The notes beneath the pieces are model-generated. The model was not told the DNA's origin and did no database searches. It worked only from the letters and a program-made list of their open reading frames with translations. From the NCBI GenBank assembly GCA_965197905.1, contig CBDAOB010000005.1, positions 960,001-1,024,000 on the forward strand: DNA of 64,000 nt. The letters run 5' to 3'. Numbering within the stretch: the first letter of the stretch is position 1; the number at the start of each line of letters is the position of its first letter. Source of the stretch: Candidatus Latescibacterota bacterium. GTDB taxonomy: Bacteria > Latescibacterota > UBA2968 > UBA8231. A program made the translations under genes and the position numbers. This document shows positions 4,314 through 23,595 of this stretch, in pieces.

Positions 4314-5540
4314 CTAGCGCGAGCGGCTTTCGATCTCGATCGTTATGCCTGCTCGGCGCAGTCGTTCGACCAATGGCATGCCCAGTGCGGTTGCAGGCGT
4401 GAGAATGCCACCACGGTCTGGACCGCCCGGGAGATCGTCGCGTTGGCCAGCAAGGGCCAGGGCTGCTTCGCATACCATCTTGACGGTGCCGCGGTTTCCA
4501 GGATCGCCACGGTCTTCAATAAGGGCCCAAACCTTCGATCCGTCGGTTCCGGTCCCGACGAACCGACAACGGAAGAATCCCGCGTCCATTTCGCGCTCGG
4601 AAGGGCCCGACCCCGGCTTCGGGGCCAACACTTCTGTCAGTTCTACAGCACCTGGGACCTGGGAGTAGACCTGGTAGAATGCTATGCTCGAGGCCAGCAC
4701 GGAGGCGGAGAGCCAGGGGACAGGGCCACCTACCTCTGCATATTCTTGATAGCAAAAATTCGGACCGTAACCCTCGTGCCACTGTTGAAAGAGGGCAGCG
4801 CTACGCCGGACAACGCGCGTATTGACGGGCCCCATTACGAACGGACCAACCCAGGATCCGAGGTCGCTGTCGTATGCCGGTGCCACGGGGTCGCGTTGGT
4901 CCCCAGATTTTGTACCGGTATGGTCAGGATTGAGCAGAAAGGGGTCTCGCATACGGGATCCCTGCCCGGAGCGTTGAATATTCAGTACCGAGGCTGCGGT
5001 CCCACCGTTCAGTCCTCCCGACGTCGCGATGAAGGCTTTAACCTGCTGGCAGGCTTGCCCGAGACGCTTGGATTCGTCCGCAATCATGAGCGTTCCAAGA
5101 TCCGACGGTACGGAATCGAAACCGCAGAAGTGTACGATTTTTGTAGCCGATGAAACGGCCGTCTCGTGATAGCGGTCGATCATATCTCGCGCCCAGGTTG
5201 TCTCACCCGTGATATCAACATAATCGGTCTGGTTTCTGACGCATGCGCTGACAACCGGTTCACCGTGCAGAGCGAAAGGTCCTGCCGTAGTGAGAATTAC
5301 GCGAGTTCGCTCTGCCATGCGATCGATGGCAGGGCCGTCCTGGCTTGCAGCGACTGCGACTTCGACATCCGTGGGAAGCTGGAGGTCCGTCTTGAGCGCG
5401 GCGAGCTTCTTTTCGTCGCGCCCCGCTAGCGCCCAACGCAGGTCAGGAGTAGCGTGGTCCCGCAGGTAGGCTGCCGCTTGTCGGCCAGTGAAGCCGGTGG
5501 CGCCGTACAGCGTCAGGTCGAGGTTACGAATTTTGGGCAC
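4314..5540 (-). CDS. Saccharopine dehydrogenase-like NAD(P)-binding oxidoreductase (trans-acting enoyl reductase family)
   Basis: YGATGFTG, ALAGR, AGPF..G, YVDITGE, CGFDSVPSDLG, GGILTPA..G motifs. Confidence 0.85.
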   Translation of the reverse strand: MPKIRNLDLTLYGATGFTGRQAAAYLRDHATPDLRWALAGRDEKKLAALKTDLQLPTDVEVAVAASQDGPAIDRMAERTRVILTTAGPFALHGEPVVSACVRNQTDYVDITGETTWARDMIDRYHETAVSSATKIVHFCGFDSVPSDLGTLMIADESKRLGQACQQVKAFIATSGGLNGGTAASVLNIQRSGQGSRMRDPFLLNPDHTGTKSGDQRDPVAPAYDSDLGSWVGPFVMGPVNTRVVRRSAALFQQWHEGYGPNFCYQEYAEVGGPVPWLSASVLASSIAFYQVYSQVPGAVELTEVLAPKPGSGPSEREMDAGFFRCRFVGTGTDGSKVWALIEDRGDPGNRGTVKMVCEAALALAGQRDDLPGGPDRGGILTPATALGMPLVERLRRAGITIEIESRSR

Positions 5541-5577
5541 TTAGCAGATATCTCCGACACAAGCCCCGAAGCGACTT

Positions 5578-6390
5578 TCAGTGTTCGATCGCCATGCCAG
5601 GCTTTGGTTTCCTGGCGCACACAAGCAAGCATTTGCGGATTGCCCAGCTCAAGTTGATGTTGGCCGCAAGCAGGTCGCGCATAGCGAACGGGTTCCACCA
5701 CCGCGACGGATCCTGTTGCACAAATCTGTTGAAACGATCGCGGTATGCGTGCCAGGTCTCTGTGGTTGCGTCGCTGAGATCGGGGTTTCCGAATCCCGCA
5801 TCTCTCAGTAAGTCTCCGTAGCGGCCGGCATTGGGCACGTAGTTTTGCGCAGGGACCAGCGGTGTTCCCCATGCCATCAGAAGATCGGACAGGACTAAAC
5901 AGCCGCCGGGCCTTAACACGCGAAAGGTTTCTTCTAAGAAACGCTTCCGAGTGGAGAAATGAAAGGCAGCTTCGATGCACAGAACCGTGTCGAAGGTTTC
6001 GTCGTCGAAGTCGAGCTTGGTAGCGTCCATTCGCTTGAAAGTGCATCCCGGTGCACGCTTCCGCGCCTCCACCAATTGTGATTCCGAAAGACCAATCCCG
6101 GTGATAGCCGCCGGTTGGAAGTAGTTCATCAATCGCCTGGTGCTGGCTCCCTGACCACACGCGACGTCCAGGATCGTTCCCCTGAGGGGCTCAATCGGTT
6201 CGAGAAGCATGTCCACGAGTCGATCGCCAGCTTCTCTGGCACAACGCGTGGCGCCGTCCCAATATCCGAAATTGGCGTATCCGCTGTCACCGCAAAACTC
6301 GCGGAGAATCGGGTCGGAAAAGACCGCATCGTAGTACAGTGACAGTGCAGTCGAAGTTGCCGGAGAATCGTTTTCAGTTGTAGTGGACAT
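5578..6390 (-). CDS. Class I SAM-dependent methyltransferase
   Basis: YANFGYW, ILDVACGQG, FDDETFD, EAAFHF, RVLRPGG. Confidence 0.9.
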   Translation of the reverse strand: MSTTTENDSPATSTALSLYYDAVFSDPILREFCGDSGYANFGYWDGATRCAREAGDRLVDMLLEPIEPLRGTILDVACGQGASTRRLMNYFQPAAITGIGLSESQLVEARKRAPGCTFKRMDATKLDFDDETFDTVLCIEAAFHFSTRKRFLEETFRVLRPGGCLVLSDLLMAWGTPLVPAQNYVPNAGRYGDLLRDAGFGNPDLSDATTETWHAYRDRFNRFVQQDPSRWWNPFAMRDLLAANINLSWAIRKCLLVCARKPKPGMAIEH

Positions 6391-6444
6391 CGGCGGTATC
6401 TCTAGCAGGTGGCCCAGATTATAAAGAACTAAGATTGGGCAAGG

Positions 6445-7892
6445 TCACCGCATTGGTGTTCTCAATTCGGATCGCCACAGTTCGGCTGCAACCCGAGTCT
6501 GTTTGCTGTTAACCTCGGACCACCATCCAAGCAGCCATTCACGGTCACGTGCGAATCCGTTCAGCGTTGAAAGCTGCCAGAATCCGTAGTCGAGGGCCCG
6601 ACCGAAGAGGTCGGGAAACGTTCGAGTCGACGAGATATCGAAGAGATCCATCCAGAACTGCGGTGGATGTGACAGCGACTTCACCAGGACATCTGGAGTG
6701 AAGCTCTGACGGAACGGGACCAGATCGCTAACACTCCACCGACGCGCCAGGCGTAGTTGGGATCCTTATCGGCCGTCTTGCAGACTACCTTGAGGGCGTC
6801 CATCCAAACACGCAGCAGGTGGCGATTTCGGGCAAAGGACACAAGCAGATCTGCGACCCCGAAGTCCGGATCGAATTTCTGCCTCCATCTGCCTTCGTAA
6901 GCTCGGAGTGTCCTGCGACTGAAATCTCCTCGGTCGAAGGCATCGCTGATCGTCTCCCTAGCCAGCGTCGCGTTCTCCAATGCAGGAGCAATTCCTTCTC
7001 CTGAGAGGGGATCGACAAAGCAGCCTGCTTCGCCGACGAGCAGACCGCGTTCAAAGTAGTTGGTTCGCGCTCCGCCGTAGGTCTTGATCGGCCAACCAAC
7101 CGGTTTCTCGATTTCGCAACGCCAGCCTTGTTCAGCGGCCCAGTTTTGGAGCCGCTTTGAAAGTCTTCCGAAAAAGTCGTGGAGCTTCAGATCGAATCTC
7201 TTGACCGATTCAGCCACCATACCCACACCGATATTGGCTAGCCCGTCCGAGATCGGGTAGACCCAGCCGAAGCCGGGAAAAAAATCTTCCTCAAACCAGA
7301 GCATCGACTCGCGCAACGGTAGTCCGTGGCAGTACGCCCGCATCGCGAACTCAACGAATCGCTCATCAGTCATCGCCAGACCGGCTCTTCTGGCAACGAC
7401 AGAATGAGCGCCATCAGCGCCGACGACCAGACGGGCGGAGTACTGGCGTTGTGTGCCAGATTCCAGGGCGGTCAGAGTCGCCGAATCGCTGTCTATCTCC
7501 AGATCGCGGACAGTGCAGTTCTCGACAGTGGTGGCACCGGCTTCCTGCGCCCGCCGAAAAATGATCTCGTCGAGTACGACGCGCGGTACAGCATGATAGT
7601 AGTCGATAGTATTAGCACGAGGAGGAATGCCGCCTTTGGCGAGCCATTTCCCGTTTAGGGCAGTACGGGCACGCCTCAATGGTAGAAGCTTACGCCGAGC
7701 GATTGCTTCAAAGCACCCGAGTTCGTCGAGTAGCATGAGGCCTTTAGCGCTAACAATGTCACCGCAAACTTTGTCTCTAGGGAAGGATTTCTTCTCCAAA
7801 AGCAACACGTTTTGCCCAATCGCAGCGAGACGGATAGCAAGGCTGCTACCCGCAGGACCGGCACCTACAATCGCTACATCGAACGTCGTCAT
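6445..7892 (-). CDS. Geranylgeranyl reductase family FAD-dependent oxidoreductase (one frameshift near 6725)
   Basis: FDVAIVGAGPAG, EKKSFPRDKVCGD, VVGADGAHS, GWVYP..DGLANIGVG, LLVGEAG..VDPLSGEGI; adding one base near 6725 joins ORF 6681-8003 to ORF 6445-6684; ATG at 7892. Confidence 0.8.
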
Positions 7893-7974
7893 TCTGTTGT
7901 TTCGCAACAAAGCCGCATCGCCGCCGGGAACCGACTTCGGAGATACCGAAAGGGACGCGGTGCAGTGGACATCA

Positions 7975-9909
7975 TCATGGATTCCGTACACGAACGACAA
8001 CACAAGTCATGTCGTCGGCCTGATCTACCCCACCCGCAAACTCCCGCACGCTGTGTAACAAGCGGTCACAGATGTCGCCAGCGGAAATCCCTGCCAGATG
8101 ACCTTCGGAGATCGTCCCCCACGTCCGCTTCTCGCCGAAGAACTCGCCGCTCTTGTTCAGCGCTTCCGAGATTCCGTCGGAGTACAGCACCAGACAGTTT
8201 CCAGGCTCTATTGAAATCTCTACGAGATCGTAAGTAACACTAGCCTTAACTCCCAGAGGGTAGAGCTCATTGCCCAGTTCGGTAATGTTGCCGTCTGCTC
8301 TCACCAATAATGGGAAGGGGCAGCCACAGGTAATCAGCTGAAGGCGATTGCTGTCGGTAATGCGTATCATAACGAAACAGACGAAGCGTCGTTTCTCCAG
8401 AGCGCGAAAAAGCGAGTCGTTGAGATTGGCGAACAACCGGGGCAACTGCGGGTTGGTTTGCATTTGGCTGTCGAGCAATCCGGTGAACATTACTGCCGGA
8501 ATTGCCGCTTCCATGGAGTGCCCGGTCACATCGGCCATTCCGACAGCAATCCCATTAGGCGATTCGAAGTATCGGTACATGTCACCACCGACATCCCCAG
8601 CCGGGTGGCAGCGGCCGGCAATGTCGAGCCCCTCTACCGATGGCGCCCTATCCGGCAGGAGTTCAAGTTGCAGGCGTCGGGCGGTGTCCAGTTCGCGATC
8701 CTGAGCCTCTTTAGCGCGTCGCAGGGTGCTAATGCGATTGCCAAGGGCAAGCGACAGCAGAAGGATCTCAAACGCGTGACCGATCTGAAAGGCGTTCCAG
8801 GAGTAAACGCCAAATGGCAGCATACCGAACACGACGGATAACGTGATCAGTGGGCCCAGCACATAGCCGGACCATGCCACGAGGAAATACCGTGCCGGCA
8901 CAAATCCCCGCTTCAGCGTCAAAACGGCAGCAACAATGATGATCAGCCATAATGACCAATTGTAGACCGTGATGTATGCCGGAAAGAACTCCTCATGCAG
9001 CCCCGCCAGAGATGCCACCGGAAAAGCAAAGCTGACGCCGATAAACCATGACATGACCCGGTGGACTCCCGGCGCATGTGCGTGCGTCAGGAGGAATACT
9101 TGCACGAACCTGAGGACAAAGACCAAATATATGGACCCAGTCACAAGTACGTAGCGGTCCCACCCGAATGCTGTTCCTGGCCATAGAAACTCCTGGGCAA
9201 CCCCGTTAAACTGGAGAAAATAGAGGGCTCCTGTGGCGACCATCAGCACATAATAGAGATACACGTTGTCGCGAAGGTACAGAAACAAGACCAGGTTGTA
9301 GATCGCCATTCCAACAATCAAACCATAGTAGGCGCCAAGCGAGATACTTTCCCTGCGAACGTGGGCGGCAAACGCAGACTCGGAATAAAGGCGCTGATGG
9401 ACAAAGAAAACATCCGGGGTGGCGCGGACCATGTATTCCCTCTTCTGTCCGAGCTCTAGCTCCAAACGGACAGCGAAGTGGCGATGTTCTATCTCCAGCT
9501 CGTTGAACGGGACATGCTCGCCGACCTGAACTATCATCCACTCCGATGTGGAATCGTCGCGCCAGTAGACCTCGATACCGAAATGGATACCGGGTCGCAC
9601 TTCGAAGATCCAGTGGCGTTGTTCAGACTCGTTCTGCAATGTGAATCGGGACCACACTGCGCGACGGGTTTGTCCGAGGTGTGGTGACTCCGCCTCGCTG
9701 TCAACGAAACGACGACGAACCTTCTGCGAGTTGACGTCGTCAATGCTCCAAACTCCAGCCGAATCAGGAAGAACTGCCAGGTACTTCCCAAGAATCACTT
9801 CTTCGGTGTCGTCAGTCAGGATCAAAGTGGCCGGCTCCCCTGCAACTGACGCAGCCACGGAAAGGGCAGCGAGTCCGCAGCAGATCGCGAGGCAGTGCCG
9901 GTGTTTCAT
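7975..9909 (-). CDS. 7TMR-DISM (extracellular DISMED2 + 7TM) sensor fused to SpoIIE/PP2C phosphatase
   Basis: Signal peptide; YYG...MAIYNL.LFLYLRD..YLYY 7TM start; FEILLLSLALG; DVGGDMY, ADVTGHS, LYSDGISEA, DDMT PP2C motifs. Confidence 0.9.
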   Translation of the reverse strand: MKHRHCLAICCGLAALSVAASVAGEPATLILTDDTEEVILGKYLAVLPDSAGVWSIDDVNSQKVRRRFVDSEAESPHLGQTRRAVWSRFTLQNESEQRHWIFEVRPGIHFGIEVYWRDDSTSEWMIVQVGEHVPFNELEIEHRHFAVRLELELGQKREYMVRATPDVFFVHQRLYSESAFAAHVRRESISLGAYYGLIVGMAIYNLVLFLYLRDNVYLYYVLMVATGALYFLQFNGVAQEFLWPGTAFGWDRYVLVTGSIYLVFVLRFVQVFLLTHAHAPGVHRVMSWFIGVSFAFPVASLAGLHEEFFPAYITVYNWSLWLIIIVAAVLTLKRGFVPARYFLVAWSGYVLGPLITLSVVFGMLPFGVYSWNAFQIGHAFEILLLSLALGNRISTLRRAKEAQDRELDTARRLQLELLPDRAPSVEGLDIAGRCHPAGDVGGDMYRYFESPNGIAVGMADVTGHSMEAAIPAVMFTGLLDSQMQTNPQLPRLFANLNDSLFRALEKRRFVCFVMIRITDSNRLQLITCGCPFPLLVRADGNITELGNELYPLGVKASVTYDLVEISIEPGNCLVLYSDGISEALNKSGEFFGEKRTWGTISEGHLAGISAGDICDRLLHSVREFAGGVDQADDMTCVVVRVRNP

Positions 9910-12572
9910 TAAAATGTGTACGAGAGACGGATGAGGCCGAGGCGGCCGATGCGGGGTGCGAAGATGTACTCGCTGTGGCGGTTGTTAAGCAGGTTCTGTA
10001 TTGAGAGATCGACTCGAAGCTGCCAGGTGGGGAGGTCGGCTCCCGCAATCAGGTCGACCAGGGTGTAGGACTTCACACGTCCGCTGCCGATCACGTCCTG
10101 TATACGGAAGCCACCGGTATAGTGCGCGCGTAAACCGCCATCGAATCCGCGGATGTGATCGCGGTAGTGAAGCCTGATAGTGCCTCTATGACTTGGTGCG
10201 TTCATGGCGATGTCGTCGGGCCACGACGATTTGCGCTTGAACAGGGTCTCACTCAAGTGAGAGTAGTTGCCCGAAAACGTCCAACTCTCGGATGGGTAGT
10301 ATGCGAGACCCAAACCCATGCCCACATGAGAGATGTTGCCGAACTGTCGTGATGACAACAACAATGCTACCGGGTCTCCCTCTCGAGGAGAAACGGTACC
10401 GACAGGTATCGCGGTTATTGCTCCGGCAAGGGCTGCAGCCGCCTCCTCGGACATGAACTGTGCCAGATGGGTCGCCAAATGCGTTGGTTCGAAGAACACA
10501 TTCGGGGTGATAACGTTGAAGACGGAAAAGCGCCTGTTGCGCTCGTAGTAGAGGTTTCCCGAGAGCAGCCAACGACCGGAGAGAACGCCTTTGTACCCGA
10601 TCTCGTAGGTCGTCGTGCGGCGGGAGCGCAGTGGTTCGATATTTTCAACGTCAGAAGGCTTGATTTCTTCGTAGGCGAAGGACTGGATGTTGAATTCCCT
10701 AAGGATCGTCGCACCGTCCGAGTTCGGAGCCGACACCTGTGAGAGATCCACCCCGGAAGCGCCCATGATGGCTACGATAGCTCCCCAGGCCGCACCGGCG
10801 TCGGCTGGGAGTGGGGTTGCCGGCCCTCCTGCGGCAGGAGGTGTAAAAGGGGACGTCATATACAGTCCATCCACGCCTCCTTGTTCATCGCGGCGGTAGT
10901 TGAAGCCATCGTCGGCAGGAACTCCAAGGATGCGTGTTGCGTAGGGATTTGTTATCGACGCTGGCAACAGGACAAAATCTGAGAAGATTTCCGCTACCGG
11001 CGGCGTTTCAAAGGCGCGGTTAAAAGTAACCCTCAGCGTATGATTGACGGCCGGACGGTAGACGAAAGCTGCCCTTGGGGACAGCACGGGATCCGGAAGA
11101 TGGCTGTTGTGATCGAGTCGAGCTGTCGCCAGCAGTCTCACTTGAGATGTGATGTCCGTGACCGACTGAAGGTAGATACCGCCTTCGTCCAGCCGATCGT
11201 CTTTCTCATTGCGGCCGTACAACGTGCCGTCAGAATCAGGTTCGGTGCGCAGTAGGTCGAGACCGTAGTCAAAACGCTGACGCCCGTCGATAAATGTAGA
11301 GCTATGCTGGACTTGAGCTACGACCTGCGTCGAGTTGTCAATGATCACGTTGCCAGTGCGCAAGAGACGAGAGTCGCCAGCATCCCCCTTATTGACGAAT
11401 ATCTGCGCGAACCAGTCACGATAGTACAGGCGGCCCTGCAAATATGCCGTTCGCCATCCGTCCAGCTGGGCGGCTCCAGTAGGGTTAAGGGCAACTTGGT
11501 CACTACTAACCAGGCCACCAGACATGACAGCCGTGATGTCAGCTGTCGGTTTGAAATCGACCCGGGCATCGACGTTCAACCGGCGCGTGTCATAGTCACG
11601 GCTGTTGTCGACAGATTCCGTCAGCTGCTTGCGTCCATCAGGTGTATCTTTGCCGATGGTTAGCGAGTCTGGTTCATTGGGATCATCAAACGGCCAGTCA
11701 GTGCCCTCGTGGAGGCGGGCAGAAATCTTGTAACCCAAGGTCTTGTTGCGTACTCCTGCGTGACGAATACCCAGCACGTGCTGGTCACGTTCTCCCAGGC
11801 CGACGTTGACGGTTGTCCCCTGAGAATCGTACGGTGATCGGGTTATGTAATGAACAATTCCCCCGGCCGCGTTGGGACCATAAAGAGCCGACCCTGGGCC
11901 CTCCAGGACCTCAATGCGCTCGAGATCGCCATCGTTGAATGAGACCAATTCTGGGTTGTTGAGACGTAAGCCAGGCAGGTTGGCAATGCGTCTGTCGGCC
12001 AGCGTCATCAATCTCGCCGAAAACAGCTGATTGAAACCTCGGACACCCCAGCGCGAACCGCTGATGCCGGTGCGAATAATATCGACGGCCGGTAAACCCT
12101 GCAGATGCTCGATCGGGCTCATCGCCGGTCGCGTGCTGATCTCGCTACGCCCAACTGTGCTGATTGCCGCCGGGGCATCGATCACCCGCTCCGTACGCCG
12201 GGATGCGGACACTGTGATCGGGTTGAGGGGAATCGAGCCAGGAGTCAACGTGAAATCGATCTTGTGCGACGATGATTCCAGAGGGTCTAAGTCTGGCTTC
12301 ACGGCCGGGTCGAAGCCGACATACGATACGCGCAGGGTGCAGCCGCCCGCGGGCAGGTCGACCAGTATGTAGCTGCCGTCCAGGGAGCTAGTCGTACCGT
12401 GTATCTCCGAACCGCACGAGGCAGCGATGTTGGCGCCGGGAAGCACCTCACCGGAGGCAGCATCTCGTACGGTGCCCCGAAGTTCGACGCCTTCTGCGGC
12501 GGATACAGAGAGTAGCCAGGCGAACGACGCCAGGGCCTTAACACACAATTTCCTGATTTTGGTACTTAGCAT
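9909..12572 (-). CDS. TonB-dependent receptor with N-terminal carboxypeptidase-regulatory-like domain
   Basis: Signal peptide; GTVRDAASGEVLPGANI; ITVSASRR; ERIEVLEGPGSALYG..AAGG plug; C-terminal NLLN...SYTF; start overlaps next gene (TAATG). Confidence 0.92.
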   Translation of the reverse strand: MLSTKIRKLCVKALASFAWLLSVSAAEGVELRGTVRDAASGEVLPGANIAASCGSEIHGTTSSLDGSYILVDLPAGGCTLRVSYVGFDPAVKPDLDPLESSSHKIDFTLTPGSIPLNPITVSASRRTERVIDAPAAISTVGRSEISTRPAMSPIEHLQGLPAVDIIRTGISGSRWGVRGFNQLFSARLMTLADRRIANLPGLRLNNPELVSFNDGDLERIEVLEGPGSALYGPNAAGGIVHYITRSPYDSQGTTVNVGLGERDQHVLGIRHAGVRNKTLGYKISARLHEGTDWPFDDPNEPDSLTIGKDTPDGRKQLTESVDNSRDYDTRRLNVDARVDFKPTADITAVMSGGLVSSDQVALNPTGAAQLDGWRTAYLQGRLYYRDWFAQIFVNKGDAGDSRLLRTGNVIIDNSTQVVAQVQHSSTFIDGRQRFDYGLDLLRTEPDSDGTLYGRNEKDDRLDEGGIYLQSVTDITSQVRLLATARLDHNSHLPDPVLSPRAAFVYRPAVNHTLRVTFNRAFETPPVAEIFSDFVLLPASITNPYATRILGVPADDGFNYRRDEQGGVDGLYMTSPFTPPAAGGPATPLPADAGAAWGAIVAIMGASGVDLSQVSAPNSDGATILREFNIQSFAYEEIKPSDVENIEPLRSRRTTTYEIGYKGVLSGRWLLSGNLYYERNRRFSVFNVITPNVFFEPTHLATHLAQFMSEEAAAALAGAITAIPVGTVSPREGDPVALLLSSRQFGNISHVGMGLGLAYYPSESWTFSGNYSHLSETLFKRKSSWPDDIAMNAPSHRGTIRLHYRDHIRGFDGGLRAHYTGGFRIQDVIGSGRVKSYTLVDLIAGADLPTWQLRVDLSIQNLLNNRHSEYIFAPRIGRLGLIRLSYTF

Positions 12573-12582
12573 AGTTACGTCC

Positions 12583-12604
12583 TTTTGTGATCCAGATCAC
12601 ATTT
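12583..12604. promoter_or_regulatory. CRP/FNR-family binding site (TGTGA-N6-TCACA)
   Basis: tttTGTGAtccagaTCACAttt versus the CRP consensus aaaTGTGAtctagaTCACAttt; the core lies 13 bp upstream of the TonB receptor ATG. Confidence 0.7.
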
Positions 12605-12721
12605 TGCAGATTTCATGTATATGGAATGTGACGGAACTATGCAACTGTGAATCCTGTATCGGCATTGCCTGAACGCTTTGCAGAACGGCATTGTACCCGG
12701 CGGCCAGCTGTGGAAAATGGG

Positions 12722-12772
12722 TTCCCCGGCAAAAAAACGGGCATCGGCCAAGACCGCCTGGGGGGCCGGGGA
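12722..12772. other. Inverted repeat / possible hairpin between the desaturase-like gene and the TonB receptor
   Basis: TTCCCCGGC (12722-12730) ... GCCGGGGAA (12764-12772), just downstream of the 12795 stop. Confidence 0.35.
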
Positions 12773-12794
12773 ATGACCGCGGAATCATCCGCCA

Positions 12795-14924: not shown

Positions 14925-14974
14925 TCAGGATGGTCTTCCTGCGGGCGGCGGTGTTGCCTCTTCCATGTGAAGGG

Positions 14975-17776
14975 TCAAGCATCCTTTTTAGGAAAGAACA
15001 GCAACTGGGCTTTGTTTTCCACGTCCAACATGCCGCGGAACACCCTCATCTCTTCAGGGATCGAGTCAAAGGAGTCTCCCCTTAGGTGGAACGGCGGGGG
15101 CATCACGCGGAAACGGGGACGATGCCGAGTCTCCCGGTCGGTCCAGTTCAGCCACCTGTTACTTAGCAAGTACTCGATCGCAAGCTGAGGTTCTAATTCT
15201 TCATTCTTGAGGCGATCGATAAGCCTGACAACCGACGGTCTCTGACCCTCGGCGAGCCAATCCTTTACCCAAACAGAAAGGTTTCGGGGGATCCTCAAAT
15301 CAGTACGGGCGTTTTTCATTTTTTTGTCGATGTGCTCGAGGAGGTCTAGATTCGTCTTGATATCAGCGAAAAAATCGGGAGGGTCTTGGTCGCACGGTTG
15401 CACGTCGTCAACTGACATATCAAACTGGCCCGTAGTGACCCCCGATTGTTGTACTATCAGATTTTCACTGTCCAAGTCGGTCTCGTCGATAACGCTCGAC
15501 TCGGTGTTGCCCACATTGCTCCAGATCTCACAGCCTCGCTCCAGGTCTAGCCGTAGCTGCATGGAAAAAGGACGCACCGGTTCCAGGATGGCCAGGTCGT
15601 CTTCTTCGTGGCGGGTGAGCAGCCCAAGCGTATCGAGGATCGGTTGTCCCTTTGTGCGACGGATATCAATGCGAACGGGTTCGCTATCGAATTCCCATAT
15701 GCGACGCACATGCTTGATCAGCATGGGAGTACGGATAATTGCCTGGTAACAAGCCCGCTCCGGCTGTTCGGCATCGCGGAACTGCTTAACGGAGAATTCG
15801 GGCACTGATTTTCCATTGGCCAATGGTTCCATTCCGAGCGCTACAAGTGCCTTGACCTTACCCTTGCAGTTCTTATATAACCCGACCTTACGTTTAAGTT
15901 CGGTTCTAAGAGTGTCCTCCCATTTAAATGCTTCTGGCTGACCACGCTTCGAATTCTTTACGGTGGTGATTTCCAGGAGGCGTTGAGGGCGCCGCTCTTG
16001 GCTCTGCCCAATAGCATCTAGCATGGGAACGTCCACCCGAAGTAGCCTTTCTGGATTTTGGTCAGTCTCGCTGTCAAGCAACCAGTTCCGACGATCTGAC
16101 TTGATCGCGCACTGTATGGTTGGCCAGCCGAATATCTCGCGACCGATCGCAGTGCCGATCTCAGTGTCACTATACGTAAAGGGTGAAACCAACCCAATGG
16201 TCTCTAGTGTGTTGTTTGATTTGCGATAACACTTCACAGGAATCGAAAAACGTACCTCGTGTTGTGCCCACTGTCCTATGTTCACTGTTCGGGACCGAAC
16301 CTCAGTGAAATTGATAGCTAGAAGGTAAACGTATCGTCCGAATGGCTTGAAAACGTATTTGTCTTGACCGTCCAATCCGACTGGTAGCAATGGCTCATCT
16401 TGCTTGTGTGCCTCATTTAAATACTTGTCGACGAACTTCCTCAGCTTCTTCGGATCTGCCTGCAGCGGCATGACTCGGACGAGAGCGTTTGGGAATCGAA
16501 AGGGCGGTAGTATGCTCAGAACTGCGGCACCGCGGGCTGTATTGAAGGGATTCCCAATTTTCCGCCGCTTATTGTGAACGCTCTCTATTAGACGTTTACC
16601 TGATTTTTCCACGAAGTGATGCCAATTGCTGCGTCGCGTTCGCCAGGCGAGATTTTCTCCTCGTGTGTATCGCATGTCCACCTCGGCCCAAAAGGGGAAC
16701 TCAGGAGTAATCACTTGGACACGGTCATCGCCCGAGCGCTTGTCCTGGGATTCGATTCCGAGTTCCTGGACGATCGGGATGTTCGGGTACCGATGCAGAA
16801 GGACCCTGAAGCCTCCACTCCGATCGCCCGTAAGGAGGTTCTCTCCTCCTAGGAGGCCGCCCCTGTGAAAGCATTTGAGTTCCATCCGCGAACGGATCAA
16901 CGCCTGGTAGCAAACTGCGTTCGGGTTCTCCGCGTCGCGGAACTGCTTGAGGTTGACGGTATCGGCGGTAGGCGCCGCCAATTGCTGCATCTGTTGCATC
17001 ATGGCCTGGAGACGAACGGGCATGCGCAGCAAATCCAGTGGTTCAAAACCTCTAGCAGGCAATGCTGCCGCAATCTCCGTCAACCGAGCCCAACTTTCCA
17101 TTGCAGAAAGCATTATCTCGCTGATGCCGGAAATGGGGTTGAAGGGAGAGCGCAGATCGGGCGGAATACGAAATGGCATGCTTGGCTGCTCGTAGTCGAT
17201 TTCAAGGACGATGCGGCGTTCGCGTGTCTGGCCCCCAAAAGCCTCTGGAAAGACGTAAGATTCGAGCTTTATTAGCGGATGTTGGCGCACGTCGGGTGCC
17301 CTTGCATACGGATCGAACTTGGCGTGCCAACCCTGCACCTTGGGCCAACCGTATACCTCGCGACCGGTTGCCTGTGAAGCGTCGTCGTCAACGAAGATGA
17401 AAGGTGATACGGAAGCGGGGCCGATGTACACTTCGCGGCCATCTTCAACACGGAACCAGTCGAGTAAAACGGAGAAAACGACCTCGTTCTGAGATACCCA
17501 GCCGGCTGTGCGCATCTCCGGCGTCATCTCTGGATAATGGATGGCGCTCAGCAATACGTAGGGGATCGCTGGGCGGAAACAGGCGATTTCGGGTGGTACT
17601 AGGTTGAGGTAATCGTCGCAGAAATCGCGAAGCCTGTTCATGGATGCGCGCAAAGGGTAGAAGCGCAGCATGGCACCTCGAAATTCGTACGGTGGCGTTG
17701 ATACGAGTGACGCCCATCTGCGGGCCATGTTGTAGTGGGGTTGATCTGGGACTTCGACGATTCGACGGCGATTCAA
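14975..17776 (-). CDS. Tandem acetoacetate-decarboxylase-like (2x ADC) domain protein
   Basis: Two internal repeats, each with GRE(V/I)(Y/F)GWP and KQFRDAE.P...CYQA; TTG start overlapping the upstream stop. Confidence 0.75.
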   Translation of the reverse strand: MNRRRIVEVPDQPHYNMARRWASLVSTPPYEFRGAMLRFYPLRASMNRLRDFCDDYLNLVPPEIACFRPAIPYVLLSAIHYPEMTPEMRTAGWVSQNEVVFSVLLDWFRVEDGREVYIGPASVSPFIFVDDDASQATGREVYGWPKVQGWHAKFDPYARAPDVRQHPLIKLESYVFPEAFGGQTRERRIVLEIDYEQPSMPFRIPPDLRSPFNPISGISEIMLSAMESWARLTEIAAALPARGFEPLDLLRMPVRLQAMMQQMQQLAAPTADTVNLKQFRDAENPNAVCYQALIRSRMELKCFHRGGLLGGENLLTGDRSGGFRVLLHRYPNIPIVQELGIESQDKRSGDDRVQVITPEFPFWAEVDMRYTRGENLAWRTRRSNWHHFVEKSGKRLIESVHNKRRKIGNPFNTARGAAVLSILPPFRFPNALVRVMPLQADPKKLRKFVDKYLNEAHKQDEPLLPVGLDGQDKYVFKPFGRYVYLLAINFTEVRSRTVNIGQWAQHEVRFSIPVKCYRKSNNTLETIGLVSPFTYSDTEIGTAIGREIFGWPTIQCAIKSDRRNWLLDSETDQNPERLLRVDVPMLDAIGQSQERRPQRLLEITTVKNSKRGQPEAFKWEDTLRTELKRKVGLYKNCKGKVKALVALGMEPLANGKSVPEFSVKQFRDAEQPERACYQAIIRTPMLIKHVRRIWEFDSEPVRIDIRRTKGQPILDTLGLLTRHEEDDLAILEPVRPFSMQLRLDLERGCEIWSNVGNTESSVIDETDLDSENLIVQQSGVTTGQFDMSVDDVQPCDQDPPDFFADIKTNLDLLEHIDKKMKNARTDLRIPRNLSVWVKDWLAEGQRPSVVRLIDRLKNEELEPQLAIEYLLSNRWLNWTDRETRHRPRFRVMPPPFHLRGDSFDSIPEEMRVFRGMLDVENKAQLLFFPKKDA

Positions 17777-20413
17777 ATTCCGTTCTCTCCGCTTACCGGC
17801 TTGTTTGGGGAGACGCCGCTCGGGATCACCCAGTTGGTGCCAAGAAGCGCCTGAATCGCCGAATGCGGATCACACTCTACGGCATCGATGGCATCTCTAG
17901 GCTTCATGCAGTGATTTGGCTCATTCTCGTGCCAATCCCTGCAGTATTGCTCTCGGCGTTCGTCATCCTGCCAGAAATCGGCGCCACCTTCAGACTCGCG
18001 TCGCGTTAGCATGTCACCACCAACGTGAATGTTTTCTGAGTCGGTGAAGTAGCCTTTCCATTCATTCTCCGCAGGGGTACCTGGGTGATTCGCCAACAAC
18101 CGCGGTCCACAGATTCTGCGCCGTGTCAATTCGCACATTGGCACGGAACCAGAAAGGAGTTTCTGCCTGGAGAATATAGTAGCTGCCTTCGGAAGAAGTC
18201 TCCTCCAGCTTAGCCCGAAGACCCAGCATCTCCACGATGGGTTGCCCCGCAATCTTGTGAATCCGCAAGTGCAAATCCTCCTTGATTTTGTGTAGCGAAA
18301 ACAAGCGCTCGAAAACTTGTGGAACGCGCACAATGCACTGATAGCAGGCGCCAGTTGGTTCGGCAGCATCACGGAATTGTTTGAGCGTGAATTCGTTCAA
18401 ACATTTCTGGTTTACCAGAGTCTCCAAGCCAAGGGCCATCAAATTCTTGAGCGGGGTTTTGGCATCAGCGGGTGCGTTATCGGGACAAGGCACCGCACTT
18501 TTGTCCCAATATCCGGCTTCGGTTTCGGTCTTGGGAAAGGGTGCAGGGCAATTGTCCCCCCAATATTTGGCTTCGGTCTCCATCTTAGGCGGTCCGACCG
18601 AATCAACTATCTTCCCCTCATAGATCTCGAGCAGGCGAAGGTGACGCTCTTCCTGTCCCATGAACAGCGCAGACATAGCCGGAGCGTCAAGCTTGAGTAG
18701 ACCCTGGCCTTTGTCTGGGTCAGGACCTCCGCGTTCCAGCCATTTATTTGCCGGCGCGTAGATCTGGCTCCTTAGAACTGGCAAGCCGTAGAGTTCACGT
18801 GCCGTTACTGCAGTGATTTCGTTGTCCGAGAATACGAAGGGCGAGATTACCCCCGCCGAAACGGGCTTCTTATCTGAGTGCATATGATCGAATAGCTTAA
18901 CGGGGACCGAAAAACGAACCTGGAGGCCGGAATAATGACCAATGTCGTCTCTCCGCGAATGTGCCTGTTGGGTACTCCAGACTATCAGATAGACGAATTT
19001 GCCAAAAGCACGAAATTGGTACCTCTCCTGATTCTCCAGATGATTGAAACGGCGGTCGACGAAATCTTGCAGTTGGCCAGGGTGTGCCAGCAGTGGCAAC
19101 ACTCGGATCGTCGTATCTGGCAGGTGGAATGGACCCGGGAGTGATATAATGGCGGCGCCCCTGGCGGTGTCGTACAAGTGCCCGTAGTGCTCCACCGCAT
19201 AGGCGGCGGTATCATTCTTCTTAAGTTTGGGCAAAGCACCCTTGGGTTGGGCAGGCACCAACCAGCCATCTGTGGCTTTGGATCGCCAGCACAGGTTCTC
19301 TCCTTTGGAATAGGTGAGATCGACATCTACCCAGAACGGGTAGTCTGGCCGCATCAAAGCGACGGGCACCCCGTCGCCTGCTTCTTCATGGCCAACCTCG
19401 ATGCCCAAGCTATCAATGATCGGGAGGTTTGGGTACTTGTGGATGCGTACGAAGTAACCGCCGGTTGAATCACCTCGCATCAAATTCGTGTCGCCGAGCA
19501 TCCCCCCTTGGTTGAAGCGCGATAGAGAAATCTGCGAGTTGACAAGGGCCTGGTAGCAAACCTCCTCCGGGTTTTCTGCGTCACGGAACTGTTTGAGATT
19601 GATCGAATTTCCAGAGGCCGGCTTGAGGGTGGCAAACCCCCGCATCGTGCGTAGTAGCTCGATCGGAATTTGAGGCCATCCTTGGGTTTCATATCCGCGA
19701 CCCGGGAAGGACATCAACATGTCGAGAACATGTGCGTTCCACGCTAGCATGCTGGACGCGGCTTTCGTGCATGCGCCAAAGGGATTGCTCGGTGACTCCC
19801 AGTTAGGAGGAATCTGGGTAAGGGTCACGTCGGGATCCTTCTCGATCTCGAGAAACGTCGCCGTTTCCATAGGTACACCGGTGTATACCTCAGAGAATAC
19901 ACGGGTGCCGACGCTGGTGATCTTGTGGGGAGTGAGTGGTTTTCCTGGCCAGGAATCGATGTGAACCGGCCAACCCTGCATTTTTGGCCAACCGTAAACC
20001 TCGCGGCCGGTCATTTGAGACGAATCTTGATCGACGAAGATGAAGGGAGAAAAGGAGGCAGAACCTTGGTAGACGTACTTGCCATGGATCTTGCGGTACC
20101 GGTCAAGGAAAACGGAGAAGACGATCTCGTGCTGGGACAGCCAGCCGGCGTTACGCGCATCCATCGCAATGCGGTCGTAATGCACGAGCTGCAGGAAGAC
20201 GTATGGTAGGGAAGGCCTGAACTGGGCAATTTCAGGAGGGATAATGTTGAGGTATGCATCGCAGAATCGCCGCAACTGGTCGAGGCGGGCGCGAAGCGGC
20301 AGAAACCAGATGGTGACACCACTGAAGGTGTATGGCGGCGCCGAAGTCTGTGTTGCCGCGCCGCGCGCCATGTTGTACTTAGGCAGATTGATGATGCGAC
20401 CTTGCACGTTCAT
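17773..20413 (-). CDS. Second tandem ADC-like domain protein (frameshift near 18085)
   Basis: Paralog of 14975-17776 (YNMAR, GREVYGWPK, KQFRDAENP); ATG 20413 overlaps the stop of the polyprenyl synthase; the C-terminus continues in ORF 17773-18372 (DPHSAIQALLGTNW aligns with paralog EPQLAIEYLLSNRW). Confidence 0.75.
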
Positions 20414-21447
20414 TGGCGCCGATCCAGCATCCAGGTGGTCAGCTCGCGAATGAACTCGAGATCTCGCGATTCGGGCAGGGAACCGAACATGCGTTGGAAT
20501 TCGTGTTGTGCAGCCCCCGCCATGCCGCGGGCTATCTGACGCGCGTATTCGATGCAACCATAATCTTCCATCCGTTGGCGGATCCAGCGGACGTCATCCT
20601 CCGTCCGATCTCCTTGATCGTCCCCAAGTATGGAATCGAGCCGGTCGATTTCCCTGGGGGTGGATAGTGAGAAGAGGCGAATCAGCATCAACGTTCGTTT
20701 GCCTTCGCGAATGTCTCCATCAATTTCCTTCCCGTAGGCTTCATCACCAACTAGATTCAGAATGTCGTCCTGTATCTGGAATGCAGCACCTAGGAAAAAT
20801 CCGAAGTGGATGAAACCGTCCAGATCAACCCGGTCCCTGGTTCCGATGAGGGCGCCAACACGGGTGGGGTATATAGACAACAGCCAGCACGTCTTTTTGA
20901 GGACCATCTCGAGGTACTGAGCATCATCCAACACGACCGTGTTGTCGCGGCGCCAGCCCAGTTCCATGGCTTGGCCTTCCGCTGATTCACGTGCCATGCG
21001 TTCGGTTTCTTCGAGGATGCGCATTGACAGGAACGGTCCCAACTGAGATCGGTTTTCTATCAACGGGCGGAGGCTCATCAGCGCTAACCCGTCGCCAACA
21101 TTGATTGCCATCGGAACGCCGGCAAGGCGATGAAGCGTAGGTTTCCCGCGGCGTTCCTCGCTACCGTCTTGGATGTCATCGTGGATTAGGAGCGCGTTAT
21201 GGAGCAACTCGATGGAAACGGCGGACCGCAGCGCGTCATTGAGGGTAGCGCCAAAGGCGCGAGCGGTTGCGATGCAGAGGGAGGGACGCAGCATCTTGCC
21301 GCCCCGCCCAGGGTAGTCAGCGAGCAGGTCGTAGAGGTGGCGCCGTGGTTCTTTGCGTGGCAGATATTCCGAAAGTGCTGTGCGTGTGGCCTCGCCGTAC
21401 TCCTCCAAGATCTCGGCGATCAGAGGTCGCGACGAGGTTGCAGTCAT
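20410..21447 (-). CDS. Polyprenyl diphosphate synthase (trans-isoprenyl diphosphate synthase)
   Basis: GGKMLRP, ELLHNALLIHDDIQDGSEERRGKPT (FARM), GQAMEL, KKT, FQIQDDILN (SARM variant), GKEIDGDIREGKRT. Confidence 0.95.
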   Translation of the reverse strand: MTATSSRPLIAEILEEYGEATRTALSEYLPRKEPRRHLYDLLADYPGRGGKMLRPSLCIATARAFGATLNDALRSAVSIELLHNALLIHDDIQDGSEERRGKPTLHRLAGVPMAINVGDGLALMSLRPLIENRSQLGPFLSMRILEETERMARESAEGQAMELGWRRDNTVVLDDAQYLEMVLKKTCWLLSIYPTRVGALIGTRDRVDLDGFIHFGFFLGAAFQIQDDILNLVGDEAYGKEIDGDIREGKRTLMLIRLFSLSTPREIDRLDSILGDDQGDRTEDDVRWIRQRMEDYGCIEYARQIARGMAGAAQHEFQRMFGSLPESRDLEFIRELTTWMLDRRQ

Positions 21448-22150
21448 GCGGAGGGCTCGGTCTCGGGCTCCTCGGAATCGGGGATTTCAACGTCAAGCGT
21501 CCCCGAAGCTGCCGATTGGCGCGATCGTAAATGAGCGCCGAGTAAAAACCGGCAGGTTGATCGTTGGGCACCTCGATGCGGACCGCTGCGGGGCGCCCAC
21601 GTTCAGGCGGGAAGCAGGTGACGTCAAGTGCTAACTTATCTGAATCTTTATCACACAAAGGTGGAACGAACAATTCTTCGGATCCGCTGGTGCCTTCTTC
21701 GAAATCCAACGAGAGGCGGACGTGAACCTCCGAGGCAACCTCGACGTTGAGCGGAACCGTTCCTGACGCGACATCTCCATTTTGGCCGTTGGCAGGCCAC
21801 CCGCTGTCGAATGGCTTTCCAGCCATCGCTCCACTCATAGCTTCGAACCAGCGGGTCGTCAGGTCGACGAAGGAGCGCGCCATACCATCTGCGGTCGAGC
21901 GCATGTTATCGGTGCCCGTGTTCGCGCCCGTCCCGAAAAAGGAACCGCCAAATTGCTCTGCCATTCGACGTCCTTCGCGGATTTGCGAATCGATAAGTTC
22001 GTACCCCAGGCGTACACTGTTCTCGATCGCCTGTTGCCAGTCATTGCCTGCGCCGGAACCGCCGTCCCAGGCGGGGCCATGGCCATCAGTCCAGTTGCGG
22101 CGCGGTGCAGAACGCTCCGGGTCTTCGCGATGTATTCGATCGTCTTCCAT
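21444..22150 (-). CDS. Hypothetical protein (frameshift in GGGG run near 21502)
   Basis: ORF 21317-22150; adding one G gives RGTLDVEIPDSEEPETEPSA*, with the stop overlapping ATG 21447. Confidence 0.65.
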
Positions 22151-22166
22151 CGGAGTCGCTTGTCCT

Positions 22167-22469
22167 CTAACTCTTATCCAGCGCAGACATCATTTCTTCC
22201 ACAAGCTCATCGTTGTTCGCGATCTCTTTCAGCTGCTTTAGTTGCTGCGACAGATCTTCCTTGAGGTTCGCCCGTCGAGTTCTCTTCTTCACCTCCCTCA
22301 ACAATAACGACAAAGCATCGGTCTCAATCGAGCCGCTCTCGTACGAGTTGGTTTGATCTACATCGCTACCACTATCCCGACTGGGCGAGGCCATCTCATA
22401 AGGCAGGCGCCACCAGCGGTCCATCATTTCAGCCCACACCATCCAGGGACTTCCGCTTCTCTGACCCAT
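22167..22469 (-). CDS. Hypothetical protein, first gene of the cluster
   Basis: 100-aa ORF, GAGG upstream, 16 bp from the next gene, helical C-terminus. Confidence 0.6.
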   Translation of the reverse strand: MGQRSGSPWMVWAEMMDRWWRLPYEMASPSRDSGSDVDQTNSYESGSIETDALSLLLREVKKRTRRANLKEDLSQQLKQLKEIANNDELVEEMMSALDKS

Positions 22470-22743: not shown

Positions 22744-23260
22744 CTACTTAAGGAACAGCATCTTGCTGAATTCGTCCTCGTTTCCGACGCGCAGGCGGGT
22801 AAAATAGGCGCCGCTAGAAACGCGCCTACCCTGGTCATCGGCCCCGTCCCAGACCACCCGGTAGCTTCCATCTCTCTGATGATTCAGCTCAAACGAACGT
22901 ATGAGCTGGCCGGTAACATCGTAGATCTCGAGGGTCACCTGTCCCGGCTCCAAGAGCACGAACGGAATGGTTGTGCTGGTGTTGAAGGGATTCGGGTAGT
23001 TCGGCTGCAGGTGTGCGGTCAAGGGAAGACCGATCATATCCCGCGCCATGGCGAGGATCTTGGCTTGCGCTTCGAGGCCAAACTGGTTGCCGAGAACAAA
23101 GAAGTCGCTAAAGTCGACTTCGCCGTTGCCGCTCAGGTCGTACCTCGCATCCCAGCCGGCGTCGGCACGGGTAAGATCGAAGTGATCGGCGAAGAGGAAG
23201 AAGTCCAGGGCGTCCACCACGAAATCGGCATTGCCTGCCCGATACTCGATCGGTACAAGC
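22744..23260 (-). pseudogene. C-terminal fragment: dockerin/EF-hand-like repeats + FlgD-Ig/T9SS-like sorting domain
   Basis: DFFLFADHF, YDLSGNGEVDFSDFF, LQPNYPNPFN..T.I, LEIYDVTGQLIR, WDGADDQGRRVSSGAYF; in-frame TAG shortly upstream and no signal peptide. Confidence 0.7.
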
Positions 23261-23595
23261 TAGGCGCTGATTGTTGTATTTCAGGGCCGGCGATCGTGGA
23301 GGAGATAGACTCCACGACGCTGCTAAAGCCGGCGTACACCGCACATATCGATCGGTTCGGAAATCTCCTTATCGAATTGTAGAATTACCCCACATCGCAA
23401 CTCGTTTCATCTCCAGGCACCCGCCAGATTACCTTAAGTGCAGATTCACCACGTATGCCCCCATCGCTCATCGACAGAGGACCAACAATCTCCTACGGAA
23501 AATAGGACTTGACAATCAGCAAGGGTAATTCACATAATATGCACTTAAGGGCCATTAGTGCAATATATACCCATTTATGCAGGGAGAAATCAGAT

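Follow-up and report, generated by a model that had tools for sequence, protein, structure and literature searches.

A conserved polyprenyl synthase, ADC-fold and desaturase-like flavoprotein module beside sensor genes: a candidate isoprenoid-lipid pathway in a Latescibacterota genome and in other bacterial phyla

Introduction

What does a bacterium make with a polyprenyl diphosphate synthase, two proteins of tandem acetoacetate decarboxylase (ADC) fold and a flavoprotein resembling phytoene desaturase (PDS), when no squalene or phytoene synthase (SQS/PSY) gene lies among them? This question is raised by eleven co-oriented genes in a Candidatus Latescibacterota genome (G000; 6.69 Mb in 5 contigs, 91% complete). 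They lie in a stretch of 64,000 nucleotides, G000:C5:960001-1024000, which we call the window. A first-pass annotation made from the sequence alone had proposed that they form an undescribed isoprenoid or lipid cluster. The eleven-gene arrangement is far beyond chance. Its core consists of the synthase, a small hypothetical gene upstream of it (h2), the ADC-fold proteins and the flavoprotein; it recurs across phyla, usually beside a sensor gene, and almost certainly forms one functional module. This module very probably takes as its substrate a polyprenoid from its own synthase, and a Schiff-base carbonyl step on that lipid seems reasonably likely. Our preferred reading, offered tentatively, is that a mobile pathway dedicated to an isoprenoid lipid comes with its own sensor, and with similar reserve we suggest that the pathway's product is the sensor's ligand.

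Conservation of the module

A scan of GTDB genomes for the flavoprotein gave 302 confirmed loci, and the best 80 (51-64% identity) were kept. Neighbours were counted with profiles built on these loci. Genes were called with a codon-score heuristic, and only representatives of recurrent neighbour clusters were annotated. Forty-three of the 80 loci have at least 8 kb on both sides (full-flank loci); they include close kin, and counts among them are not independent events. According to record labels, the carriers comprise Nitrospira relatives, alpha-, beta- and gammaproteobacteria, Acidobacteriota, myxobacteria, Gemmatimonadota, Binatia, Limnocylindria and Margulisbacteria.

In the best 80 of 302 loci, h2 was found in 78, the synthase in 74, an ADC gene in 54 and a STAND sensor gene in 48, followed by a saccharopine-dehydrogenase-like (SDH-like) oxidoreductase in 34, an HpnA/epimerase-like one in 20 and the transporter FadL in 7. 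The synthase and h2 are both present in every full-flank locus (43/43), and a STAND cyclase/kinase sensor is present in 37/43. An ADC-type gene (ADC or the single-domain k7) occurs in 35/43, and an ADC-type gene or a protein termed k6 in 42/43. Similarly, 37/43 contain an SDH-like or an HpnA/epimerase-like oxidoreductase, with both together in only 1.

For the reverse test, the synthase alignment was searched against metagenomes and 80 loci of 582 were kept. Above a threshold of 387 bits, which was chosen after the list had been seen, 45 of 51 synthases have a module gene on the same contig, one has the reductase only and five have nothing (contigs of at most 4.1 kb). Sixteen of these 51 contigs are at least 9 kb long; thirteen of them carry the flavoprotein and fourteen a STAND gene. 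Three of the 29 loci below the threshold are fragments of clade members, and the flavoprotein was found in 0/26 of the others, all full-length. The synthase clade is thus diagnostic of the module. A metagenome scan with a single ADC protein gave no match. Chance clustering is rejected by the co-occurrence counts in both directions.

The trio on which the first-pass annotation was built (synthase, ADC proteins and flavoprotein) thus does stand together across phyla, in the 80 GTDB loci as in the reverse metagenome test, and is co-inherited as a module. As a fixed unit it needs amending: the obligate pair is flavoprotein and ADC, which are often fused and also occur without the synthase. The two hypothetical genes counted in the cluster also part ways, h2 being a core gene and the other (h1) an orphan with no homologue in the 80 loci.

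Among 41 related genomes, only G000 and G015 have the flavoprotein. The G015 locus reads h2, synthase, ADC, flavoprotein, then the reductase and SDH-like genes inverted and a DISM phosphatase next to them, without the methyltransferase or TonB receptor. In a FastTree phylogeny of 85 flavoproteins, the window protein groups with G015, L003, L072 and L079 (support 0.99); the last three hold the only TonB genes of the 80 loci and two of the three methyltransferases. Cultured carriers include Rhodopila globiformis DSM 161, Methylotetracoccus oryzae C50C1, Archangium violaceum Cb vi76 and Minicystis rosea DSM 24000.

Five plasmid loci, of 12 records, were read. In Azospirillum brasilense the order is flavoprotein, FadL, ADC, a second flavoprotein and an AAA/STAND gene, and in Mycobacterium sp. 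JS623 it is synthase, hypotheticals, cyclase, flavoprotein and an SDH-like gene. Qingshengfaniella carries a flavoprotein-k7 fusion, a cyclase and Crp; Rufibacter has a cyclase and the flavoprotein, and Catenovulum an ADC gene and the flavoprotein. A cyclase/STAND gene flanks the flavoprotein in 4/5. From these gene contents, flavoprotein, ADC and sensor are the wider unit, of which synthase and h2 mark one branch. The Azospirillum locus (L085:5667-7145, minus strand) adjoins a phage-tail-like gene block and eutBC.

Several loci show variants. Archangiaceae loci (e.g. L031:6811-8619, minus strand) have k6 (~380 aa) and k11 (~210 aa) in place of ADC; neither gave a family match. The Mycobacterium sp. 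JS623 cluster contains a 481-aa gene similar to k6. We rejected k6 as ADC-like (hhalign probability 0.1%); it has no Pfam, NCBIfam or reliable ESM Atlas match, and by eye alone it gives an unconfirmed impression of a START-like fold. An IspH (LytB) gene lies directly before the flavoprotein at L022:9000-9986 (plus strand), and L034, L052, L059 and L070 have a CAAX prenyl-protease-like (Rce1) gene in front of it. At L049:17694-20048 (plus strand) the SDH-like gene shares one ORF with a class III aminotransferase, which hints at an aminated product variant.

Organization of the window copy

ORF calls on the window place the eleven genes on the minus strand between 22469 and 4314, co-oriented and in the order first described:

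22167..22469, minus: hypothetical 1 (h1), 100 aa, orphan
21444..22150, minus: hypothetical 2 (h2), core gene; the raw ORF extends to 21317 owing to a one-base assembly error near 21491
20410..21447, minus: trans-polyprenyl diphosphate synthase, 345 aa (PF00348, E 3e-55)
18062..20413, minus: tandem ADC-fold protein 1, 783 aa (weak PF06314 match; fold Z 20.3 to acetoacetate decarboxylase)
17773..18090, minus: frameshifted C-terminal tail of ADC protein 1 (profile homology to relatives' tails)
14975..17776, minus: tandem ADC-fold protein 2, 933 aa, TTG start, intact tail, 38% identical to protein 1
12795..14924, minus: flavoprotein of the PDS/ZDS/HpnE clade, 709 aa, core gene (NAD_binding_8/amino-oxidase domains)
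9909..12572, minus: TonB-dependent receptor, an accessory outer-membrane transporter (domain search)
7975..9909, minus: sensor phosphatase with 7TMR-DISMED2, 7TM and SpoIIE/PP2C domains (domain search)
6445..7892, minus: geranylgeranyl-reductase-like flavoprotein (FAD_binding_3/GG-reductase family, above the TIGR02032 cut-off; raw stop 6681)
5578..6390, minus: SAM-dependent methyltransferase, subclade accessory (domain search)
4314..5540, minus: SDH-like NAD(P) oxidoreductase, 408 aa (saccharopine-dehydrogenase NADP domain)

Pfam and NCBIfam searches upheld the domain assignments made at first pass for the synthase, ADC, flavoprotein, TonB, DISM-PP2C, reductase and methyltransferase genes; the gene then called enoyl-reductase-like is the SDH-like one. 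The PF06314 matches of the two double-ADC proteins are weak (E 1e-5 and 1e-11).

The genes are closely spaced. The h1-h2 gap is 16 bp, 4-nt overlaps lie at 21444/21447, 20410/20413 and 17773/17776, and gaps of 50 and 222 bp separate the flavoprotein from ADC protein 2 and from the TonB receptor. The receptor and the DISM phosphatase share 1 nt at 9909, and the gap from the latter to the reductase is 82 bp. Reductase and methyltransferase lie 290 bp apart in the raw sequence, or 54 bp if the reductase frame is followed past its break, and 37 bp separate the methyltransferase from the SDH-like gene. The previously described junctions at 20410/20413, 17773/17776 and 9909 and the 222-bp gap stand, while the 21444/21447 overlap and the short reductase-methyltransferase gap exist only across frame breaks. 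Cluster genes have a GC content of 52-61% (58.4% genome-wide). Scans of the region for promoters (9 vs 8.2) and terminators (17 vs 16.7) gave counts at the level of shuffled sequence. Clear transmembrane segments are present in the DISM protein, and none were found in the core proteins.

Three frame breaks interrupt the cluster: in h2 near 21491, in ADC protein 1 near 18065-18090 and in the reductase near 6726. We compared them with contigs of sequencing runs X1 and X3, from two studies, and of the more distant X6, at a depth of ~5-8. One of X1 and X3 may itself be the source sample. Contigs of X6 leave most of the ADC-synthase part uncovered, a gap that carries no meaning. Contigs of X1 and X3 both carry an extra base near 21491 that restores the 21444/21447 overlap; the h2 break is therefore an assembly error in the window. 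The ADC protein 1 break follows the second domain and splits off a tail of ~100 aa, with no indel there in X1 or X3. This tail is homologous to relatives' C-termini by profile (E 5e-7 vs 0.81 for the best of 300 shuffles); pairwise, 4/6 comparisons were at or below 13/500 shuffles and 2/6 were not significant. The reductase break removes the last ~80 residues (the last fifth); X1 and X3 lack an indel there and only X6 is intact. The breaks in ADC protein 1 and the reductase are probably genuine.

The synthase and its putative partner

Residues D90, D91, D94, R99, R100, K185, T186, D227, D228, N231, K240 and K250 of the synthase are kept in 73/73 sequences. The set comprises both Asp-rich motifs, RR, KT and the residues that bind isopentenyl diphosphate, as in an elongating trans-isoprenyl diphosphate synthase. 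The synthase shares all of these catalytic motifs with Thermus/archaeal-type GGPP synthases (1WMW, 1WY0), but position -5 relative to the first Asp-rich motif is an invariant Ala (73/73) instead of an aromatic residue. The residue at this position sets chain length, and the Ala would therefore predict a product longer than C20. The synthase belongs to a cluster-specific clade; G000 also encodes two further synthases and IspH.

The h2 protein has a conserved helix (residues ~38-67) and a probably beta-rich C-terminal part. It has no Pfam, NCBIfam, PDB or named ESM Atlas match, only unnamed Atlas clusters. For a model of its complex with the synthase the score was 0.81, and no control exceeded 0.00. 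Of solved complexes 116/157 reach the mark used for this score, and of mismatched pairs 2/215; with our own alignments these counts hold only roughly. At least 38% of contacts are common to the runs, and partner pLDDT is at least 57. In the model, h2 docks on a conserved surface patch of the synthase (residues 175-183, 210-221 and 301-312). The synthase contacts L179, L183, F217, F218, A221, L309 and A312 are kept in 67-72/73 sequences, and the h2 contacts V46, Y50 and V52 in 49-55/56. This points to h2 as a probable partner subunit. In heteromeric synthases of the HepS/HepT type, a small upstream gene likewise encodes the partner; h2 resembles these in being a small upstream gene predicted to bind the synthase, but differs in lacking a Pfam or NCBIfam match and in docking on a conserved surface patch. 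The first gene, h1, has a single match (96% identical) in a search of 5.8 billion proteins and a 2-nt deletion in the X3 contig, and probably lies outside the core.

Tandem ADC-fold proteins

Structural comparison bore out the ADC double-barrel fold. The model of the ADC protein (pLDDT 75.4) matches only the ADC superfamily (top five Z 18.9-20.3, next 4.7); domain 2 superimposes on acetoacetate decarboxylase with Z 20.3 and an rmsd of 3.3 A over 240 residues (Foldseek E 5e-11), and domain 1 matches domain 2 by profile. The NCBIfam ADC family gave no match for the window ADC proteins. Domain 1 keeps E96, R137 and K144 in 37/37 sequences, and a Lys at the matching position of domain 2 is found in 0/37. 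Protein 2 shows the same pattern, and ADC domains fused to flavoproteins keep the Lys in 26/26 aligned sequences. In alignments K144 coincides with the Lys of the active-site motif in 4ZBO and 3BGT, with AADase-type spacing. Arg30 of 3BGT aligns with a Val of the ADC protein, in a weakly scoring segment. If Arg29/30 of acetoacetate decarboxylase binds the substrate carboxylate, the Val makes a neutral aldehyde or ketone the more likely substrate here. For catalytic residues other than the Lys, we used the roles generally ascribed to them in the ADC superfamily.

Published work shows what this fold can do: the catalytic residue of AADase is Lys115 (PMC11388336), MppR uses its active-site Lys for cyclization (bioRxiv 10.1101/2023.03.21.533663) and also acts as an aldolase (PMC7820114). 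PDB titles also point to aldolase-type members. The cluster proteins are alike in fold to AADase, MppR, Sbi00515 and Swit_4259 and carry the Schiff-base Lys motif in domain 1. They differ in their tandem active and inactive domains, insertions, conserved tail, ~12% identity and isoprenoid context; the motif Gln of Sbi00515 is also absent.

The PDS-like flavoprotein

The flavoprotein model (pLDDT 88.5, pTM 0.90) best matches rice PDS 5MOG, with Foldseek E 1.4e-17 and Z 27.6 (rmsd 2.8 A over 443 residues). Other enzymes of the amine-oxidase fold score well below this, the next at 22.9, and we rejected oleate hydratase and prenylcysteine oxidase as the closer kin on the same measure (Z 19.7 and 15.9). 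While phmmer searches of PDB gave 0 matches for the flavoprotein, as for the SDH-like protein, a bridged profile aligns it end to end with the PDS sequence (E 6e-21). It nevertheless falls below the curated cut-offs for HpnE (48 vs 283 bits), ZDS (22 vs 622) and PDS (21 vs 569). Compared with these enzymes, it is ~250 residues longer, has an ADC partner or fusion and sits in a cluster that lacks a phytoene or squalene synthase. Part of its length is a helical insertion of ~130 residues, which is absent from four HpnE-like proteins.

R331 is invariant among the loci (78/78), and the Azospirillum and Mycobacterium homologues lack it. It aligns, across a gap, at or one residue from PDS Arg300, a residue identified via mutagenesis primers in PMC5703498. 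The same source describes a long hydrophobic cavity in PDS, flavin-only catalysis and a substrate positioned by its central conjugated triene.

The family comprises 5,048 proteins among 8,000 candidates scored, with 2,629 representatives at E 1e-30. We picked 46 long homologues from the best 150 representatives, and 24/46 carry an ADC domain, at either end. Single fusions join the flavoprotein to the synthase (P0161) and to a methyltransferase (P0121). Fusions to DUF5995 (two) or DUF2515 (one) are those of P0224, P0251 and P0238, and tandem double flavoproteins occur in P0122, P0123, P0126, P0129 and P0197.

Sensor, transporter and tailoring genes

The STAND sensors are cyclase- or kinase-AAA-TPR proteins that score 273 bits to TIGR03903 (cut-off 706). 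They are of the same class as the TOMM system kinase/cyclase fusion protein, which also lies beside a small-molecule cluster, but are below its cut-off and adjoin a lipid pathway rather than a peptide one. STAND genes are on the opposite strand in 40/51 cases. The window has a 7TMR-DISM-PP2C protein in place of this sensor type; an orthologue (45%) lies beside the core in G015, and the gene was found in 3/41 related genomes, one of them without the cluster. First described as a gene that could sense the product, the sensor proves to be a near-constant part of the module rather than an add-on, given the STAND gene of most full-flank loci. Elsewhere in the genome, G000:C3:114417-117947 (plus strand) holds a zinc-ribbon-cyclase-AAA-TPR STAND gene with two in-frame stops in an unrelated neighbourhood. 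We did not assign it as the module's sensor; it is distant and carries the two stops.

TonB receptors are found in 3/80 loci, all in the window's flavoprotein subclade, and FadL occupies the place in other loci. A closer paralogue of the window's TonB receptor (41%) lies elsewhere in the genome. Close reductase orthologues occur only in G000 and G015 of the 41 genomes, with a housekeeping paralogue (30-36%) in 32/41; the reductase also lies beside the core in L001, L120 and L122. Methyltransferase orthologues (48-53%) directly follow the flavoprotein in L003, L072 and L076. The SDH-like gene is present in exactly the 2/41 genomes that have the flavoprotein, and its product is 35% identical over its full length to the one encoded beside the flavoprotein in Mycobacterium sp. 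JS623. It fills the slot held in other loci by the HpnA-like reductase, which scores 131 bits to TIGR03466 (cut-off 368).

Comparison with known pathways

As the first-pass annotation had noted, no CrtB or HpnCD gene is in the cluster. No SQS/PSY-family gene was found among the window genes or recurrently in the 80 loci, and none was detected in G000 at 91% completeness by a search that found its control in 8/14 genomes. Its statement on UbiA prenyltransferases and classical terpene cyclases is borne out as well, with no such Pfam among the window genes or recurrent neighbours. No phosphatase or prenyltransferase was recurrent near the core among the annotated representatives. Squalene-hopene cyclase was absent above cut-off from the genome, where only a below-cut-off SQHop_cyclase_C fragment was found, away from the cluster.

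A carotenoid cluster (CrtE-CrtB-PDS/CrtI) is contradicted by the missing phytoene synthase and the missed PDS/ZDS cut-offs, and the HpnCDE hopanoid route by the missed HpnE cut-off and the lack of SQS_PSY and of squalene-hopene cyclase. A true acetoacetate decarboxylase is contradicted by the Val at Arg30 and the lack of a family cut-off match. PADLOC models match 0/5 core window proteins and gave only generic cyclase and methyltransferase domain matches. In linear meroterpenoid routes a prenyltransferase joins the chain to an aromatic core, and this enzyme is absent from the cluster. Marinoterpin clusters (PMC8383307) are alike in having a polyprenyl synthase without a cyclase, and FAD enzymes are mentioned; an ADC term has 0 occurrences in the available part of that paper. 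SWACOS STANDs are mentioned without a prenyl or ADC term in the available part of PMC7159879. Combinations of ADC, prenyl, desaturase, STAND and FadL terms gave no match to a characterized pathway, in line with the first-pass claim, and no published description of the gene set was found by a search that reached few subscription journals and no supplements. The folds are known throughout, yet in combination they depart from what defines each system checked, whether carotenoid, hopanoid, cyclase, meroterpenoid or defence. The type of pathway would thus be new, with a putative function.

Neighbouring genes

Just upstream of the operon, 22744-23220 (minus strand) encodes a small protein with a FlgD-Ig/secretion C-terminal sorting tail, with many similar copies in the sequencing runs compared. 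Divergent from the cluster is a helical-looking ORF of 453 aa (23509-24870, plus strand; GC ~47%) with no Pfam, NCBIfam or PADLOC match. An IS256/Mutator transposase gene (25295-28764, plus strand), ~3 kb upstream, is interrupted by a group II intron (RT-maturase ORF 26248-27921). Further away, 8-16 kb upstream, are a patatin-like phospholipase (30582-31439, plus strand) and a membrane sensor-HAMP adenylate cyclase (38011-40260, plus strand); a patatin gene also lies near the Rufibacter flavoprotein locus.

Discussion

We take the observed module, folds and catalytic residues as fixed points and propose reactions, a product and a ligand role around them. The synthase, probably with h2 as an adaptor subunit, would build an all-trans polyprenyl diphosphate, probably of at least C25; this step is strongly supported. 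The chain may then be brought to the aldehyde or ketone level through dephosphorylation, by a housekeeping phosphatase or the flavoprotein, and an NAD(P) oxidoreductase. ADC domain 1, which has the residues for it, would bind the carbonyl as a Lys Schiff base for aldol, retro-aldol or hydration chemistry, and domain 2 may be a non-catalytic lipid-binding or structural copy. The flavoprotein, as its PDS fold suggests, could desaturate or isomerize the chain next to the conjugated carbonyl; since it would act beside such a carbonyl, no phytoene or squalene synthase would be needed. The interchangeable oxidoreductase would set the alcohol/carbonyl or enone state, and in the window's subclade the reductase and methyltransferase may tailor the product. 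Finally, gene context suggests that FadL or TonB carries the product across the outer membrane and that a receptor encoded with the module senses it, which would be a STAND cyclase/kinase in most genomes and the 7TMR-DISM phosphatase here.

Several observations weigh against this reading. STAND proteins are a common class, 6/43 full-flank loci lack one, and the DISM sensor is linked to the module in only two genomes. The step to the carbonyl level has a gap, with no phosphatase or prenyltransferase in the module. The protein k6, unrelated to ADC, is present in 8/43 full-flank loci, and 7 of these have no ADC-type gene; Schiff-base chemistry is therefore not universal in the module. Azospirillum, Catenovulum and Qingshengfaniella have flavoprotein and ADC without a nearby synthase; the two proteins can thus act on a substrate from elsewhere. 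SQS/PSY-family genes exist elsewhere in 48/50 other carriers (49 of the 80 loci and G015, whose match is weak and partial), and in these carriers a substrate could be provided in trans. As two frame breaks look genuine, the window copy may itself be decaying; it is a well-equipped, possibly decaying member of the module.

The same core could instead make a membrane, pigment or antioxidant lipid, such as a cyclase-free polyene, with the sensor switching the operon on in response to another cue. We consider this unlikely, though less so than the other alternatives. A PDS-like fold with a GG-reductase is typical of membrane isoprenoids, the HpnA-like reductase resembles a hopanoid-cluster gene despite its sub-threshold TIGR03466 score, the STAND genes mostly face the other way, and one locus (Qingshengfaniella) pairs a cyclase with a Crp regulator. 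However, importer-type genes (FadL 7/80, TonB 3/80) and unrelated kinds of sensor recur, the periplasmic sensor and TonB receptor suggest an outside ligand, and the patchy spread among relatives (2/41) is unlike that of a housekeeping lipid.

Uptake and remodelling or catabolism is a rather improbable alternative. Here a lipid (apocarotenoid, polyprenol or fatty acid) would be imported via FadL/TonB, or formed from phytoene or squalene by genes outside the cluster, and then cleaved or modified by the flavoprotein, the ADC protein (as hydratase or retro-aldolase) and the reductase, the synthase being secondary. The synthase-less loci (one with FadL), the SQS/PSY genes of most carriers and the aldolase-type enzymes of the ADC superfamily all fit. 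Against this, the synthase and h2 never leave the flavoprotein in full-flank loci, the synthase has its own clade and intact catalytic motifs, a flavoprotein-synthase fusion exists and G000 has no detected SQS/PSY gene.

An anti-phage or conflict system, with the STAND cyclase as detector of infection and a lipid that is toxic or alters the membrane as the enzymes' product, is very improbable. STAND NTPases with nucleotide cyclases, a patchy distribution and the nearby IS256 element with its group II intron would suit it, as would the sporadic SWACOS-type STANDs of conflict systems (PMC7159879, available part), but the core proteins have no PADLOC match and the window's own locus has no STAND gene. 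Least credible is a photoreceptor in which the ADC protein binds a retinal-like conjugated polyenal as a Lys Schiff-base chromophore and signals to the cyclase: synthase, desaturase-like enzyme and alcohol/aldehyde oxidoreductase follow polyenal logic, the invariant Lys lies in a hydrophobic barrel with a non-polar residue at the decarboxylase Arg30 position and the cyclase adjoins, but the invariant Glu suggests catalysis, frequent flavoprotein fusion fits channelling, record labels place many carriers in soil or groundwater, and we know of no precedent for an ADC-type Schiff-base photoreceptor.

If the preferred reading, a dedicated isoprenoid-lipid pathway with its own sensor, is right, it would be a new class of bacterial terpenoid pathway without cyclase, phytoene synthase or prenyltransferase. 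It would also give functions to two large orphan families, the PDS-clade flavoproteins and the lipid-associated ADC proteins. To our knowledge, the inputs of STAND cyclase/kinase receptors and 7TMR-DISM sensors are largely unknown, and the product would be a testable small-molecule ligand for both. Because cultured carriers exist, direct testing is possible, and their intact copies are better material than the window copy. More speculatively still, and with more doubt than confidence, the module may reflect widespread isoprenoid signalling between cells: a conjugated prenyl carbonyl lipid made by a heteromeric polyprenyl synthase, a desaturase of the PDS clade and a Schiff-base ADC enzyme without a cyclase or head-to-head synthase, moved by FadL or TonB and acting as the ligand of STAND adenylyl-cyclase/kinase receptors or 7TMR-DISM phosphatases, with synthase-less loci as listeners or signal degraders.

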